Below the pieces are notes generated by a model, which saw only the letters and a program-made list of their open reading frames with translations, was not told the DNA's origin and searched no databases. A stretch of DNA of 32,000 nt. Source: Staphylothermus hellenicus DSM 12710 (GTDB taxonomy: Archaea > Thermoproteota > Thermoprotei_A > Sulfolobales > Desulfurococcaceae). Both the position numbers and the translations under genes were made by a program. The stretch lies in the NCBI RefSeq assembly GCF_000092465.1, contig NC_014205.1, positions 900,001-932,000 on the forward strand, read 5' to 3'. Positions within the stretch are counted from its first letter, which is position 1. Each line of letters starts with the position of its first letter. Positions 16,248-32,000 of this stretch are shown piece by piece.

Positions 16248-16436
16248 TTCTTACACCATATATTATATATGTATAAACACTGAATATTAGGATTAGCTAA
16301 TAGTTTAACAGCTAATAATAACATATTATAAAACCTAATATTCACTAGTGAATAGAGGATCTTATATTTTTGAAAAGAATTTAACTTGTATATTTCTATA
16401 TTGTTTAGATGAATACGTATTAGTAGATGATGCGGT

Positions 16437-26895: not shown

Positions 26896-27093
26896 TTACT
26901 TAGCATACTCCTTATATAACCAGCCCTTCTCAGTCCTAACAACAAGCCCAGCCTTCTTCAAATCCTGGAGTCTCCCACGAATAGTATTATAGTTTAGCCC
27001 TGTAATTTTCTGGATCTCCTTGGGAGACAATGGCCTCTTCTCCTTCTTAAGCACCTCTAATATTATCTCCTTCGCGGTCTTCCTCTCACTCAT
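26896..27093 (-). CDS. Small winged-helix DNA-binding protein (65 aa)
   Basis: ORF track 26896..27177. I prefer ATG 27091-27093 (MSERKTAKEIILEVLKKEKRPLSPKEIQKITGLNYNTIRGRLQDLKKAGLVVRTEKGW), with GGGGAG 8 nt upstream. Classic helix-turn-helix-wing layout. Confidence 0.65.
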   Translation of the reverse strand: MSERKTAKEIILEVLKKEKRPLSPKEIQKITGLNYNTIRGRLQDLKKAGLVVRTEKGWLYKEYAK

Positions 27094-27311
27094 AACAATC
27101 TCCCCACAAACAATCCTTAACCACATGATCCTTATGATTTCATGGTTATTAAACTTGATCCCAAACCTAACAACCAAGACAAAGACACAGAGAAATCAAA
27201 GCTAACACCACTAGAAAAACATTATAAACAAACCAGAAACAAAACCACCAAACCAGAAGAAATAAAGGGAAAAGAGGGGGTTCAACACATATTTTGAAAA
27301 GACCAGAAAAC

Positions 27312-27329
27312 GAGAACTCCCCGGTTCTC
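27312..27329. repeat. Hairpin/palindrome motif copy 1: GAGAAC-TCCCCG-GTTCTC
   Basis: Read directly: perfect 6-bp arms with a 6-nt C-rich loop. Same family as copies at 27376, 27614, 27764, 29409 and 30340. Confidence 0.8.
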
Positions 27330-27375
27330 AATATAGATGAAGGGCTTGATCATGTATTAGCCCCCCGCATAATTA

Positions 27376-27394
27376 GGGGAACCGGGGAGTTTCC
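27376..27394. repeat. Hairpin motif copy 2 (opposite orientation): GGGGAAC-CGGGGA-GTTTCC
   Basis: Read directly. The arms pair with one G:U if transcribed. Followed by ATGATC, as in other copies. Confidence 0.75.
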
Positions 27395-27424
27395 ATGATC
27401 TAGACATAATCCAATAGAAGCAGT

Positions 27425-27583
27425 AGCCCCCTCTACATGAAGTATTTTGTAGGAAATCCTAATAATGTATCTTATAAGAATGGAGAGCTGGAAACACCTT
27501 GAGCACCCTATATGTTTTTATAGAATCCCCCTAACAACACTTCAAGGATATGGATTATAACATGATCCATTTATGAGGGGGCT
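27425..27583. repeat. Long-range GC-rich inverted repeat AGCCCCCTC (27425-27433) / GAGGGGGCT (27575-27583)
   Basis: Perfect 9-bp complementarity, read directly. The G/C runs stand out against AT-rich surroundings. Confidence 0.7.
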
Positions 27584-27613
27584 GATGTGTTTAAAAGATA
27601 GTGTTTAAATAGT

Positions 27614-27631
27614 GAGAACCGAGGAGTTCTC
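27614..27631. repeat. Hairpin motif copy 3: GAGAAC-CGAGGA-GTTCTC
   Basis: Read directly: perfect 6-bp arms. Confidence 0.8.
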
Positions 27632-27661
27632 AAAAACATAAGCATCCCAAACAAAAACCAT

Positions 27662-27734
27662 AGCCCCCCTCACCAACTAGGAGAGATGAAAATCCAAGAG
27701 ATATCAATAAACGCTTTTTCATGAATAGGGGGCT
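27662..27734. repeat. GC-rich inverted repeat AGCCCCCCT (27662-27670) / AGGGGGCT (27727-27734)
   Basis: Complementary with one bulged C, about 56-nt loop. The flanking CAT...ATG extends the stem. Confidence 0.65.
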
Positions 27735-27763
27735 TTATGTTTTTACAGGATTAGATCTTGTTT

Positions 27764-27783
27764 GGGGAGCCGGGGGGTTCCCC
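27764..27783. repeat. Hairpin motif copy 4: GGGGAGC-CGGGGG-GTTCCCC
   Basis: Read directly. The arms pair with one G:U. Followed by ATAGATCAAC, which is mirrored at 30331-30340 in the right arm. Confidence 0.75.
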
Positions 27784-27917
27784 ATAGATCAACAAACATT
27801 AACAACCCTTACACCCCCCTCAACAAGAAACAATATCGATACATCTGTAAACAATAATACATAGAGCTTTCTTCTCAGATTTTTCTTTAGAAAAGCCTTG
27901 TATAAAAGTTGTTGGAG

Positions 27918-27923
27918 AAAAAA
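27918..27923 (-). terminator. Oligo-T tract downstream of the frameshifted pilin gene (candidate archaeal terminator)
   Basis: The minus strand reads TTTTTTCTCCAA about 22 nt after the stop. The same TTTTTTCTCCAA string follows the paralogue. Confidence 0.4.
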
Positions 27924-27944
27924 GAATAATGTGAAATATTTGTT

Positions 27945-28019
27945 TTATGGTAGTGTTACTGTTGCTGGATACTGTCCGCCGCTAGCAGTATGAATAAGAA
28001 TACTGACAGTCTCACCACT
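27945..28019. repeat. Left copy of 75-nt near-identical inverted repeat (3' end of frameshifted pilin gene)
   Basis: The reverse complement differs from 30101..30175 at 3 of 75 positions (hand alignment). Encodes SGETVSILIHTASGGQYPATVTLP*. Confidence 0.85.
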
Positions 28020-28735
28020 AGCAAATTCTTCGGTGACAATCGGGTTAAATTCGATTATGAAATCCACACTATCTAATTCACTTCCACTATCACTATCATA
28101 AAGTTTTATGTGCCATGTATAGATACCTGGATTCTCGGGCAACTGTACATTTTGTAAGGACAAATCATCCGATTGACCACTTGCAATTTCCTTTGTATCC
28201 GATGTTGCCGAAGGATTGGTTTCGGGAATCTCAACATAGACATTACGGCTACCCTGCTGTTCATCATTTTTAACCGTTACAGTTAATGTGGCTGTTGTAC
28301 CAGGCCCTCCAATGACTATATCGGGATACTTTGAAATATATACATTTGTATTGGCTGGCTTTTCTCTAGTAGTAGAATGGATCATTATTTGATCATTTAT
28401 TGGTTGGCCCGTGCGTGTTAGATAGAATAGTATTTCTGTTTTCTCTCCAGGGTTTAGTGTTTTGCTGTATGTTATTGTTCCTGGTTTGTTGTTTATGAAT
28501 ATATTGTCTATTGTTGCTGTTTTGTCCCTGTATTCTTAACTATTACATGAACTATCCAGTACTGATTATTACTACTATCTGTTTTGCTTTCAGCATAAGC
28601 ATTTACTACTTCTAGCTTCTCAACACCAGTAAAACTACCTGTTAATCCCGTGATCCACAATGCTACAGCTATGCTGATCGCTATAGCAACTGCTACTATG
28701 ATCACGGTTGCAATAACAGGTGATATAGCCTTCAT
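27945..28735 (-). pseudogene. Type IV pilin-like (class III signal peptide, Pilin_N) protein interrupted by a 1-nt frameshift; carries an extra Ig/CARDB-like module
   Basis: Track ORFs 28508..28735 (MKAISPVIATVIIVAVAIAISIAVALW...VKNTGTKQQQ*) and 27945..28385 are two frames of one gene. The second frame is open from 28530 and reads ...TATIDNIFINNKPG..., collinear with VKNTGTKPVTIDGVFINNKPG of the intact paralogue. Relative to that paralogue, one C of the Pro codon is missing next to 28519. Repaired length is 263 aa. Confidence 0.7.
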
Positions 28736-29408
28736 ATCGCTTACACCTCTTAATTCTCCCTTTTAATTATCCTCGTCATTACTTATTATATCCATGCATA
28801 CATATATGCTTAACTACTTAGATGAAAATTCTTCATGATCATCCAAGTCTATTTAATATGTATATTTTCATGTTTATTCAAAGATCCCATGGTTCTAGAT
28901 AATCTATAAGATATGGATGAGCTACGGATCCATAGAGAGGGATTGCAGATTTGTTCCCATATATGCTTCTTTTGAAAGATCCTAGATACATGTATAGGGT
29001 GCTGTGTCTTTATTAACTATACTGTAATAAGGATCAATGTGGCATGGTTTAGGCTTTAATAATGCTTATGAACTAGGTATTATGTTTCACAATAACATAA
29101 GTATTTATCTCAGCTGATTCATTATGGTTTATCAAGTGTGAAAATACAAAGTAAAATATGTGAAGCATGTTCTTCAACATAATTGTTGTAGTTTATTAGG
29201 AGAAATTGTATCTCTCAGAAAACATACCTCCTCACAGCATATAAAGAGCTTAAACACCACCCATACATTTCTCTCACATACACTATTCTCTTAAATATAA
29301 GATAGAATGAAACATGCATTACAACTAGCATTTACTAGGTTTTATCAGCCCCATCCCTCACTATCGGAAGAGGGGATTGGAGAAGGGTAAAGAACTCTCT
29401 CACAAAGT

Positions 29409-29425
29409 GGAAACCCCCGGTTCCC
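29409..29425. repeat. Hairpin motif copy 5: GGAAAC-CCCCG-GTTCCC (in the spacer between the two pilin genes)
   Basis: Read directly. GTGGAAACCCCCGGTTCCCATAG compares with the reverse complement of copy 2, ATGGAAACTCCCCGGTTCCCCTAA. Confidence 0.7.
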
Positions 29426-29489
29426 ATAGCATGACCCTGTCCAAAAACACGTAACCCTCTCCCATTAAAAACTATGATCTCTCCTCCCC

Positions 29490-29526
29490 CTGCTTCAGAA
29501 AAAGAAATTGATACTGAGCGAAGCAG
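29490..29526. repeat. Stem-loop CTGCTTC-N23-GAAGCAG in the inter-pilin spacer
   Basis: 7-bp perfect inverted repeat, read directly. About 125 nt upstream of the intact pilin start codon. Confidence 0.55.
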
Positions 29527-29650
29527 TGTTTTGAGACAGGATATAGATAAACATTTAAGCAAAACGTATTAGTTGTATAAAAACATGTATTAGTAATCAT
29601 AAACTTTAAATCATCAGATAAGAAGAATATTAGTATGGGTGATCATTTTT

Positions 29651-30175
29651 ATGAAGGCTGTAGATCCCGTTATTGCAACTGTTATTATTGTTGCTGTTGC
29701 TATTGCTATTAGTATAGCAGTAGCACTATGGATAACAGGATTAACAAGCAGCTTCACAGGCGTTGAGAAACTAGAAATAGTAAACGCATACGTAGTTAAT
29801 GTTGAGGATACTTCTCCTGATGATACAAGTGTAGATCATCCTGGATGGAATATAACTGTAATAGTTAAGAATACTGGGACAAAACCAGTAACAATAGATG
29901 GAGTATTCATAAACAATAAGCCTGGAGACGCTGGTAAAGTATATACCAAATATGTTTCTAATCCTTCTAGTGGTAATCCACATGATACAAATCCGGTGGG
30001 AGCAGGTTTAACAATAAATCCTGGGGAACAGAAAACATTATACTTTTATCTAAGTACTGTGGAAAATGACTCGAATAGTCCTGTAAGCGATAAATTCTCT
30101 AGTGGTGAGACTGTTAGTATTGTTATTCATACTGCTAGCGGTGGACAGTATCCAGCAACAGTAACACTACCATAA
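29651..30175 (+). CDS. Type IV pilin-like secreted protein (class III signal peptide, Pilin_N/DUF1628-type N-terminus)
   Basis: ORF track 29639..30175. I prefer ATG 29651 (MKA/VDPVIATVIIVAVAIAISIAVALWITG), which gives the short basic leader plus hydrophobic helix typical of prepilin-peptidase substrates. GGGTGA lies 9 nt upstream. Confidence 0.8.
   Translation: MKAVDPVIATVIIVAVAIAISIAVALWITGLTSSFTGVEKLEIVNAYVVNVEDTSPDDTSVDHPGWNITVIVKNTGTKPVTIDGVFINNKPGDAGKVYTKYVSNPSSGNPHDTNPVGAGLTINPGEQKTLYFYLSTVENDSNSPVSDKFSSGETVSIVIHTASGGQYPATVTLP
30101..30175. repeat. Right copy of 75-nt near-identical inverted repeat (3' end of intact pilin gene)
   Basis: 72/75 identical to the reverse complement of 27945..28019. 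Encodes SGETVSIVIHTASGGQYPATVTLP*. Confidence 0.85.
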
Positions 30176-30198
30176 GAAAGATAGAAGCTATTAAATAA

Positions 30199-30204
30199 TT
30201 TTTT
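30199..30204 (+). terminator. Oligo-T tract downstream of the intact pilin gene (candidate archaeal terminator)
   Basis: TTTTTTCTCCAA about 24 nt after the stop codon, conserved with the left arm. Confidence 0.4.
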
Positions 30205-30311
30205 CTCCAATATTTTTTCAGAGGGCTTTTCTTGAAAATATATTTGAGAGAAGCGTCTACGCATCGTTGTTTATGGTTGTATTGTTAATATGGTTTCTTG
30301 TTAAGGGGACG

Positions 30312-30529
30312 TGGGGGATTGCGATTTTTGTTGATCTATGGAAACTCCCTGTTCTCATTGATCAATGATTAATTCTTAACCGTACATGCGCCCTCAATGA
30401 ACTGTTTTTGCTGATGTCCTAGAGTCTTAATTGATGAGAGAATTAGGAGTTCATTTACATTTGTTATGGTTTGTTAGAAATCACTGATTTCCCGAATAGG
30501 TACAATGATCAAGTATGTTGCAACCCCCA
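30312..30529. repeat. GC-run inverted repeat TGGGGGATTGC (30312-30322) / GCAACCCCCA (30520-30529)
   Basis: Complementary with one bulged A. Lies in the flank downstream of the intact pilin gene. Confidence 0.55.
30340..30356. repeat. Hairpin motif copy 6: GGAAAC-TCCCTG-TTCTC (downstream of intact pilin gene)
   Basis: Read directly. It is the positional counterpart of copy 4 in the inverted duplication (shared GTTGATCTATGG context). Confidence 0.7.
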
Positions 30530-30593: not shown

Positions 30594-32000
30594 TTAAGCG
30601 GTCTTTTGTTTTATGTGTTTTTGTATTTTTATGGTTAAGTATGCTGTGATGGTTGTTAATATGATTGTTGGGAGGGCTGAGAAGTGTATGATGTAGAAGC
30701 TCCATAGGCTGTGGTTTCCTATTATGTATAGGGTTAGGTACATGGTCCATATGGAGTAATATGATAGTAGGAGTTTTCTAAGCTTATCTATTCTTATAGT
30801 CCATGGCATAGTTATTATTCCTAGAATGAATCCACATAGGTAAACTATTGGTAAACCCATGCATTTCACTGGTTGATGATTTACTGGGTTTATCCATAAG
30901 GTGAAAGATTGCCTGCCTAGAAGCCAGTCTATCGGTGAAGATGAAATTGATCCTATGCTTTTTGTCGATAAGTGCCAATGTATAGCATCTACTATGGATG
31001 CTTGGAACCATTTCTGGAACCCATAATAGTTTATGAAAGGAACCGAGAACAGTATTAATAGTAATGGGAACACTACATAGTATCTGAGCAACGTTCCGAA
31101 AGCGTGTCTTAACTTGTAAAGAATATCTCCTCTTTGAAAGAATCCCTCAATGAATTCAGCTGGTGCAATGAATAATCCAGAAAATTTTATAAGACCTGCT
31201 AAGCTGAACAGAACTGTTCTAGCCACACTGGTTTTGAGTGAAGTGTATGGATATTTTATGAATACATAAACACCAACAACTGTAAATACTGCTAGGAAGG
31301 GATCTAGCATCGCTAATACTCCAACAGTGTGGTATGTATTATCAAAATACATGATAATAGGTGTTATGAGAGACAATAAGACAGCATGTTTTCCTCTAAG
31401 GAAAACTCTGAGTATCTCATATGTTATGAGATATGAGAATGAATATATGAGAGCTGTTGAAACAATACTTGGAATCCTCCAAGAAGCCGGGTTATCGCCT
31501 AATAAAACAATAGATAGCATAATAAAATACTTACCTAGAGGAGGATGTTCAAGGTTAAAGTATTCATTAATACCCCCCTTATCAGGCAAAGCCCATCCAG
31601 GAATAACATCTAAAACACTATAATTTAACCTATTAAAATCCCTAACAACATCGTTGATGGAGCAATTCTTCTTTAGAGAAACATATACAGCATTCAAACC
31701 ACCAACATATAAGCTCCTAGTAAAACTACGATTATCCTTCACAACAGTAACCCTAGCAACAAGTGAACCCCTATATTCATCTTCAACAAGACTAAAACAT
31801 AGCTGACCAGAAACACCATTTAAAATAGATGTATTAAAAGGCTTATCCAATACAACAGTATATAATGAACCAGCAGAACTATTCACCCTAATAGAGTCGT
31901 AACCAAAAATCTTATACAAAATATTCCTAGCAGAAGAAACATACCAAACCTCATCAGAGACATAACAACTCTTAAAACCAAAACCACGAAACAACTCATA
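30594..32000 (-). CDS. GT-C fold glycosyltransferase of the PMT/GT39-like (dolichyl/polyprenyl-phosphate-sugar dependent) family; 5' end beyond window
   Basis: ORF track 30594..31994; the frame stays open to the window edge. Loop-1 acidic motif SDEVWY, hallmark EHPPLGKY followed by WRIPS, more than 8 TM helices, and a late SSSPIDWLLGR block, as in PMT-family enzymes. Confidence 0.75.
   Translation of the reverse strand, partial: YELFRGFGFKSCYVSDEVWYVSSARNILYKIFGYDSIRVNSSAGSLYTVVLDKPFNTSILNGVSGQLCFSLVEDEYRGSLVARVTVVKDNRSFTRSLYVGGLNAVYVSLKKNCSINDVVRDFNRLNYSVLDVIPGWALPDKGGINEYFNLEHPPLGKYFIMLSIVLLGDNPASWRIPSIVSTALIYSFSYLITYEILRVFLRGKHAVLLSLITPIIMYFDNTYHTVGVLAMLDPFLAVFTVVGVYVFIKYPYTSLKTSVARTVLFSLAGLIKFSGLFIAPAEFIEGFFQRGDILYKLRHAFGTLLRYYVVFPLLLILFSVPFINYYGFQKWFQASIVDAIHWHLSTKSIGSISSSPIDWLLGRQSFTLWINPVNHQPVKCMGLPIVYLCGFILGIITMPWTIRIDKLRKLLLSYYSIWTMYLTLYIIGNHSLWSFYIIHFSALPTIILTTITAYLTIKIQKHIKQKTA

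Follow-up and report, generated by a model that had tools for sequence, protein, structure and literature searches.

Background

Duplicated prokaryotic genes can exchange short tracts of sequence by ectopic gene conversion; the inverted tufA/tufB pair of Salmonella and the archaeal chaperonin paralogues are examples. In Moraxella, Piv inverts the tfpQ/tfpI pilin genes: the repeats lie in the constant 5' part of the coding sequence, outside the promoter, inversion switches the expressed 3' part, and the recombinase gene is adjacent. In the pilE/pilS system of Neisseria, pilin copies consist of conserved and variable segments, conserved sequence lies at and beyond their 3' ends, and recombination between copies is non-reciprocal. 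Here we describe a pair of paralogous pilin genes, termed A and B, in the marine hyperthermophilic crenarchaeon Staphylothermus hellenicus DSM 12710. Both genes lie in a 32,000-nt stretch of contig NC_014205.1 (positions 900,001 to 932,000; "the window", whose own numbering is used throughout), and they are nearly identical at their 3' ends and saturated with synonymous changes at their 5' ends.

The aapA/aapB locus of Sulfolobus acidocaldarius offers the nearest structural comparison; the subunit of filament structure 8q30 has been identified as AapB (PMC11178815). As in S. hellenicus, the Sulfolobus locus holds two pilin paralogues, and the proteins of the two species share a fold and detectable sequence similarity. 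They differ in that sequence identity is ~21%, and the Staphylothermus family has 25 invariant C-terminal residues together with a long form that carries an extra domain. The examined part of the window showed no pilus assembly genes, whereas Staphylothermus marinus has an assembly operon (T2SSE/T2SSF) at the corresponding place, adjoining the orthologue of a winged helix-turn-helix (wHTH) gene in the window. Since the Sulfolobus filament is built by AapB only (PMC11178815), a dispensable second pilin is plausible.

Gene conversion between paralogues, archaeal ones included, is well known, as from the duplicated mtrA genes of methanogens (PMC4632066) and a survey of duplicated prokaryotic genes (PMC6053082), and the A/B pair is a new example of a known process. 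A further parallel is the lpl cluster of Staphylococcus aureus, a set of bacterial lipoprotein genes in many tandem copies (PMC2568036). In that cluster the evolving unit is not the open reading frame (ORF); as in the pilin pair, it is a conserved gene-end block with the adjacent intergenic DNA, exchanged among neighbouring paralogues. The pilin system differs in having two copies, which are inverted in S. hellenicus. Our literature searches found no report on gene conversion in archaeal pilins or archaellins, and nothing specific on Staphylothermus pili.

Two head-to-head pilin paralogues

Genes A (791 nt) and B (525 nt) are arranged head to head. Their proteins begin with MKA(I/V)(S/D)PVIATVIIVAVAIAISIAVALWITGL and end with SGETVSI(L/V)IHTASGGQYPATVTLP, and three blocks of the DNA recur in both genes, as follows.

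28735..27945, minus strand: gene A, long AapB-like type IV pilin paralogue, 263 residues once one missing base is restored
28735..28508 and 28385..27945, minus strand: ORF pieces of gene A after the 1-nt deletion, 75 and 146 residues
29651..30175, plus strand: gene B, short intact AapB-like type IV pilin paralogue, 174 residues, assigned from profile match and structure model
28596..28736, minus strand: conserved 5' block of A, which codes for the class III signal peptide and for helix alpha-1; 141-nt repeat, 79% identical
29650..29790, plus strand: 5' conserved block of B; 141-nt inverted repeat with A, 79%
28479..28547, minus strand: middle conserved block of A (VIVKNTGTK..IFINNKPG); 45-nt (78%) and 29-nt (97%) repeats; contains the frameshift site
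29857..29926, plus strand: middle conserved block of B; 45-nt and 29-nt repeats with A
27937..28038, minus strand: 3' block, putatively homogenised, A arm; last ~94 nt of the coding sequence and 8 nt past the stop; 102-nt repeat, 88%
30082..30183, plus strand: 3' block, putatively homogenised, B arm; 102-nt inverted repeat with A, 88%

With its missing base restored, A resembles B at both ends and carries between them an extra inserted domain of ~115 residues. This domain is immunoglobulin-like and is common to the intact long forms of the family (P0015, P0019, P0021 and P0028).

Several lines of evidence identify the family. A family profile matched the AapB filament subunit of 8q30 with E=1.3e-7. 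Matches to the Pfam entries Pilin_N and DUF4352 were below threshold, that to Pilin_N being weak (E=0.008, below the curated cut-off). An AlphaFold2 model of B (pLDDT, the predicted local distance difference test, 88.7) has an N-terminal helix (residues 6-35) that leads into a beta-sandwich. The top Foldseek matches of the model are crenarchaeal type IV pili (8q30, 8fk7, 6w8u, 6nav and 6w8x; TM-score 0.46-0.69 on target length), so that both profile and structural searches point to a head like that of solved crenarchaeal pilus subunits. MKA followed by ISPVIATVIIVAVAIAISIAVALWITGL is invariant across the family, giving the short positively charged leader and hydrophobic N-terminal helix of a class III signal peptide. 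Like the N-terminus, the last 25 residues are almost invariant family-wide, and in the model they form two confidently predicted C-terminal beta-strands. Because of the profile match to 8q30 and the structural matches to crenarchaeal pili, the predicted products of A and B can justifiably be called pilin paralogues.

Block-wise divergence between genes A and B

According to the initial annotation, A and B differ at 33 positions over the first 144 nt and at 3 over the last 75 nt, and a codon alignment with direct counts returned exactly these values (31 differences in the first 141 nt). The three differences in the last 75 nt, stop codon included, are GTC/GTT, CTT/GTT and GGC/GGT. The 5', middle and 3' blocks were found independently as inverted repeats, with the lengths and identities given above. 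Divergence of the middle block is intermediate, and the longest exact match between the genes, 33 nt (27945-27977 / 30143-30175), lies inside the 3' repeat.

Divergence along the aligned genes is not uniform. Codons that specify the same amino acid in A and B differ in 23 of 41 cases in the 5' block and in 2 of 22 in the 3' block (Fisher p=3.2e-4). A MaxChi breakpoint test on family-polymorphic sites separated 38 differences in 80 sites from 3 in 38 (permutation p=6e-4). The contrast between the two ends of the genes is correct as first described, and it is not random.

The age of the two ends was calibrated against S. marinus, whose orthologues differ from those of S. hellenicus at ~22% of synonymous codons. 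The 5' blocks of A and B differ at 56%, near the highest value between any two family members, and the 3' tract at 9%. The 5' blocks are therefore much older than the split between the two species, and the 3' tract is no older than it.

Shared tracts in S. hellenicus and its relatives

The pair was compared with four metagenome-assembled loci, L001, L002, L044 and L045. L001, L044 and L045 each carry a long gene and then a short one, in tandem and on the same strand, and in L002 a partial second copy comes after the long form. Parts of the neighbourhood are shared with the window: a DUF7980 gene, a wHTH gene and a K+ channel gene in L044, and in L045 a gene similar to the dolichyl-phosphate-mannose protein mannosyltransferase (PMT) family. 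The inserted ~115-residue domain is homologous in A and in the long forms of all four loci, and the duplication into long and short genes therefore predates the split of S. hellenicus from these lineages.

Despite this age, the last 72 coding nt of A differ from those of B at 3 positions and from those of the long forms in the four loci at 9-11. The two S. hellenicus genes also share derived states. Both have GAG (Glu) where 18 of 18 relatives have CAG or CAA (Gln), AGC where 17 of 18 relatives have AGT, and CAG TAT where most relatives have CAA TAC. The only further S. hellenicus paralogue found in the genome, P0035, retains the Gln. Exact record look-ups with B (174- and 178-residue versions) and with P0035 had no match, so that P0035 enters the comparison as protein.

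Sharper tracts occur in the relatives. Over the same 72 nt the long and short genes differ at 2 positions in L001 and at none in L044. In L044 they are 100% identical over ~91 nt at the 3' end, with edges that drop abruptly to background, and 23 of 43 synonymous codons differ at the 5' end; in L001 the identical stretch is ~81 nt and 24 of 43 5' codons differ. The pattern is reversed in L045, where the 5' end has 126 nt of 100% identity, beginning 2 nt ahead of the ATG, and 6 of 21 synonymous codons differ at the 3' end. These tracts are supported by Fisher p values of 1.6e-6 to 7e-4 and by MaxChi p<=4e-4. L001 and L044 are themselves close relatives, as the spacer that follows the long gene is nearly the same in the two. 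The 3' blocks of these genomes nevertheless differ at three positions, and at each of these both paralogues of one genome agree.

Paralogues are thus closer than orthologues within the tracts, the duplication is older than the lineages, and the tracts are discrete, all of which are features of concerted evolution. The initial annotation had left a choice between recent gene conversion and nucleotide-level constraint on the 3' block. The shared derived states and the sharp tracts of the relatives favour the former. Constraint at the level of DNA (through mRNA structure, a regulatory or terminator signal, antisense transcription or strong codon selection acting on the last 75 nt) would make orthologues at least as alike as paralogues, and the opposite is seen: 14-68% of synonymous codons of the 3' block differ between genomes, against 0-9% between adjacent paralogues. 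This between-genome divergence largely refutes such a constraint, which we consider very unlikely even though the average divergence in the family is lower for 3' than for 5' blocks (mean 0.36 vs 0.48) and the last 24 nt, CCAGCAACAGTAACACTACCATAA, are unchanged in many members. The L045 pair has a diverged 3' block beside an identical 5' block; codon preference is equal in the two blocks; the predicted RNA fold of the 3' block is ordinary (z ~ -0.7); and Rfam, at gathering and at permissive thresholds, gave no match. Moreover, constraint would not create twice the non-synonymous change from Gln to Glu that A and B share.

Recurrent short-tract gene conversion between neighbouring pilin copies would very probably account for these sequence patterns. 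Purifying selection keeps three protein blocks nearly invariant: the N-terminal signal peptide and helix, the middle strand block, and the last ~25 residues. The DNA similarity maintained in this way may let homologous recombination copy short tracts between neighbours. Single blocks would be reset to near-identity now and then, while the others keep the full synonymous saturation built up since the old duplication; in S. hellenicus the latest reset would have spanned roughly the final 100 nt of the coding sequence. We infer the mechanism of recombination and the order of events from these comparisons.

Compared with known cases of concerted evolution, the pilin genes show the same closeness of paralogues within a genome and the same discrete tracts. 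Homogenisation is likewise confined to segments that selection already keeps similar, and an inverted pair can also invert the segment between its members. They differ in that homogenisation reaches only short terminal blocks (~80-130 nt), which enclose a hypervariable middle and a domain insertion, that different blocks were reset in different lineages, and that the genes encode archaeal pilins. The result is a clean, statistically supported instance of block-wise concerted evolution in archaeal surface-filament genes, found in at least three genomes, two of them closely related. Trees and orthology calls for these pilins depend on the block that is used.

Downstream flank and inversion of gene A

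Since relatives have the pair in tandem, gene A was inverted in S. hellenicus. The similarity between A and B continues beyond their 3' ends into two flanking segments.

27773..27923, minus strand: downstream flank of A, homologous to the flank of B; T-rich tract and one unit of a palindromic repeat
30199..30349, plus strand: downstream flank of B, homologous to the flank of A, from the alignment

The conserved downstream flank that had been noted in the initial annotation is real: 111 of 155 positions of the gapped alignment are identical (72%; E=6e-20), and the score of 81 bits compares with at most 27 bits in 100 shuffles. This homology probably dates from an earlier and more extensive exchange, or else from an inverted partial duplication linked with the inversion of A; a later, shorter conversion, or residual coding constraint, would then explain the difference in divergence between tract and flank. 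The tract that was reset would lie within an inverted repeat of ~270 nt that includes the ~155 nt of flank.

It is possible, though doubtful, that a single event produced both the 3' block and the flank. The 3' end of B would have been copied in inverted orientation together with ~170 nt of its flank, replacing the 3' end of A when A was inverted, and no recurrent conversion would be needed; selection at the protein level would then have kept the coding part similar as the flank drifted. Consistent with such a duplication, the homology is collinear from the 3' block through ~155 nt of flank, the shared flank was not found at the locus of any relative, the tandem pair of the relatives implies that an inversion did occur, and the 28% divergence of the flank is comparable to the ~22% of synonymous codons that differ between the two Staphylothermus species. 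However, divergence is lower at the synonymous sites of the tract than in the flank (2/22 vs 28%, binomial p=0.03). The flank also contains a unit of the dispersed palindromic repeat, which can inflate apparent homology, and the tandem relatives were homogenised block-wise without any duplication of flank, so that recurrent conversion operates in the family anyway.

Several observations weigh against recurrent conversion as the explanation of the A/B pair. The excess divergence of the flank over the tract means that a single event fits both poorly. The A/B tract is imperfect: its three mismatches break up the run, and a Sawyer-type test of the longest perfect run therefore missed significance for this pair (p=0.10); the mismatch-tolerant MaxChi was used in place of that strict test. 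The 3' signal is carried by only 22-25 codons. The lower divergence of 3' blocks family-wide suggests that a general constraint, or frequent exchange between lineages, may add to the 3' pattern. The comparison loci come from metagenome assemblies, in which short repeats might in principle be made too uniform by the assembler, and no recombinant molecule was observed.

An assembly artefact in the window itself was considered and rejected. The DNA is 100% identical to three independent contigs assembled from public read sets (Logan assemblies), the three mismatches and the frameshift included. The ends of these contigs (L049, L050 and L051) fall at 27948, 27974 and 30137: two assemblies end at 27974, and the third contig spans exactly 27948-30137. 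Breaks at the 33-nt exact inverted repeat are expected of k-mer assemblers and are no evidence of inversion, and since short-read contigs break there, those data are compatible with either orientation of the 2.19-kb segment between the repeats. Short exact inverted repeats in gene pairs of this kind can be expected to break short-read assemblies generally.

The genes that neighbour the locus are ~88% identical in DNA to those of S. marinus F1. An orthologous pilin pair in S. marinus was sought and not found: synteny ends at position 27163 of the window, just upstream of the wHTH gene. At the corresponding place S. marinus (L017 1-9200) has a K+ channel gene and the pilus assembly operon, which comprises T2SSF, a T2SSE ATPase with an intein, and five other ORFs. 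In a different strain (L016 80-1195), a ~1.1-kb insertion holds a DUF2283 gene pair. The only close family member in S. marinus, Smar_1493, sits between TldD and a DEAD-box helicase (L014 9849-10615); that site is empty in the window (16321-16367), where a ~770-nt stretch is missing. Smar_1493 and B are 87% identical at their 5' ends, roughly the genome-wide level for orthologues. The pilin locus is at a rearrangement hot spot. In L045 (1126-3055), the long pilin gene is immediately preceded by a serine-resolvase gene and a TnpB-like (Cas12f1-like_TNB) gene; the two may represent an IS607-type element and are a further sign that these loci are prone to recombination.

The frameshift in gene A

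Gene A is interrupted within its middle block.

28516..28528, minus strand: frameshift site in A; A reads GGGACAAAAC followed by AGCA, and relatives read ...AAACCAGCA or ...AAAAACAGCA, a short homopolymer being contracted in A

One base is missing at ~28519, where A has ACAAAA-CAGCAACA and B has ACAAAACCAGTAACA. Frame 0 of A ends after 75 codons, and the -1 frame is then open for ~195 codons to the normal C-terminus and stop of the family. The frameshifted copy described in the initial annotation is therefore genuine. The same deletion is present in the independent read-set assembly L051, a contig that is carried by three sequencing runs and is 100% identical to 27948-30137. All intact long-form orthologues read through this site.

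The persistence of a long open frame downstream indicates that the lesion is recent or is bypassed. The homopolymer context is ACAAAAC, and a -1 slip on A-AAA, or an extra A in the transcript, would yield ...TGTKTATID..., as in several intact relatives. The start of A is intact: its start codon opens a full signal peptide, and a Shine-Dalgarno-like GAGGTG stands 8 nt upstream. Of the four positions at which A and B differ over the last 75 coding nt, three are departures of A from the family majority, a number too small for significance, and one of these replaces a nearly invariant Val with Leu. Following conversion, A would have lost one base in the short homopolymer, and the fall of most tract differences on A would fit a recently disabled copy. 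A is presumably inactive.

Palindromic repeats and the proposed analogy to programmed pilin variation

From the silent copy, the conserved 3' block and flank, and nearby runs of five to six G or C, the initial annotation had drawn a speculative analogy to pilE/pilS antigenic variation. The runs are real and locally enriched, 9 of the 36 runs of at least 5 G or C in the window falling in 27276-27814, and they are explained as the cores and arms of a palindromic repeat element.

27312-27329, 27377-27394, 27614-27631 and 27765-27782: palindromic repeat cluster with core GRRAACYCCYCGGYTCYC (5 matches vs 0.03 expected)
29410-29426 and 30340-30357: further degenerate copies of the palindrome, from alignment

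The unit occurs in six copies around the pilin genes. In most of them the core is flanked ~27 nt away by complementary G- or C-rich arms, GAGGGGGCT ... AGCCCCCTC, forming imperfect hairpins of ~110 nt. Of five palindrome stretches tested, four gave better folds than their shuffled versions (z -2.0 to -3.0), and the remaining one scored -0.6. The repeat may be MITE-like (resembling a miniature inverted-repeat transposable element) or a regulatory array. The S. marinus-like contig L016 ends inside one copy.

Programmed variation, whether of the pilE/pilS type or by an invertible switch, would use the conserved blocks as handles and A as a silent donor or phase-OFF copy, and exchange or inversion would then alter the surface of the expressed pilus. 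Invariant blocks do flank a variable middle, a change in homopolymer length disables one copy, the pair has inverted-repeat geometry, and the family is mosaic across genomes, with 5' serine-codon types that do not track long or short identity. The conserved repeat at and beyond the 3' ends of the A/B pair, that is, the 3' block with its 155-nt flank, is also a feature of the Neisseria system. Against this, a regular-expression search for G-quadruplex (G4) motifs (four runs of at least 3 G or C, loops of 1-12 nt) found none in the whole window, and no recombinase ORF was found in 26.4-32 kb. Gene A is not one of several silent, promoterless, 5'-truncated cassettes: only two copies are linked, and the single disabled one has its own start codon, Shine-Dalgarno-like sequence and signal peptide, with a full 5' end. 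All detected tracts lie in invariant blocks rather than the variable part, the variable middles being too diverged to align. Both coding sequences would come through an inversion across the 3' repeats essentially unaltered, the 5' repeats are 79% identical with only short exact matches, and an identical contig for the segment between the repeats was recovered in three sequencing runs. Programmed variation is accordingly rated very improbable, and the pilE/pilS analogy is not supported; reversible switching at the A4/C tract, or infrequent exchange of cassettes, is conceivable.

The comparison with the two described systems points the same way. S. hellenicus shares with Neisseria the features given above, but has neither a G4 initiator nor a cassette array, exchange is seen in invariant blocks only, and a free-living organism of hydrothermal vents has no adaptive immune system to evade. 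With Moraxella tfpQ/tfpI it shares two inverted pilin coding regions ~2 kb apart and inverted repeats within the coding sequence. In S. hellenicus, however, it is the 3' ends that hold the good repeats, the segment includes both promoters, and the adjacent recombinase gene of the Piv, Hin and shufflon type of switch was not found. The exchange between A and B is ordinary concerted evolution of duplicated genes and not programmed antigenic variation, and the more speculative reading of the locus is thereby removed.

In a related scenario, which we regard as unlikely, the invariant N- and C-terminal blocks would serve as portable recombination handles by which surface-exposed middle cassettes are swapped between paralogues, and between strains after DNA transfer, with the frameshift of A a reversible OFF state. 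Desulfurococcales would then gain recombination-driven diversification of their pili, for instance against pilus-binding viruses. The evidence reaches as far as block-wise exchange and family-wide mosaicism; it does not extend to cassette transfer, reversibility or selective benefit. Loci with long and short forms make it possible to test, more broadly, whether the conserved ends of archaeal pilins favour the exchange of their variable surface parts.

Neighbouring genes and other features

The ORFs of the 26.4-32 kb region encode a membrane protein of the DUF7980 type (the family name is taken from its orthologues), the wHTH protein, A, B, and a PMT-like glycosyltransferase. A tRNA search found none. 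A scan for promoters and terminators gave 13 promoter-like sites against 14.8 expected, but its models are of bacterial type and uninformative for an archaeon. The spacer upstream of B includes a GC-rich island (29350-29500; ~0.50 vs ~0.36 locally) that holds one copy of the palindrome; it had no Rfam match and a fold z of only -0.6.

The winged-helix protein (65 residues, 26896-27093, minus strand) is a candidate regulator. It is identical at 64 of 65 residues between S. hellenicus and S. marinus, its upstream region contains the palindrome cluster, and its gene is next to or downstream of pilin genes of the family in several lineages (L006, L011 and L044). On the other side of the pair, the short pilin gene is adjoined by the gene for the PMT-like membrane protein (30594-31994, minus strand), as is also the case in L045 (6584-6895); this protein may glycosylate the pilins.

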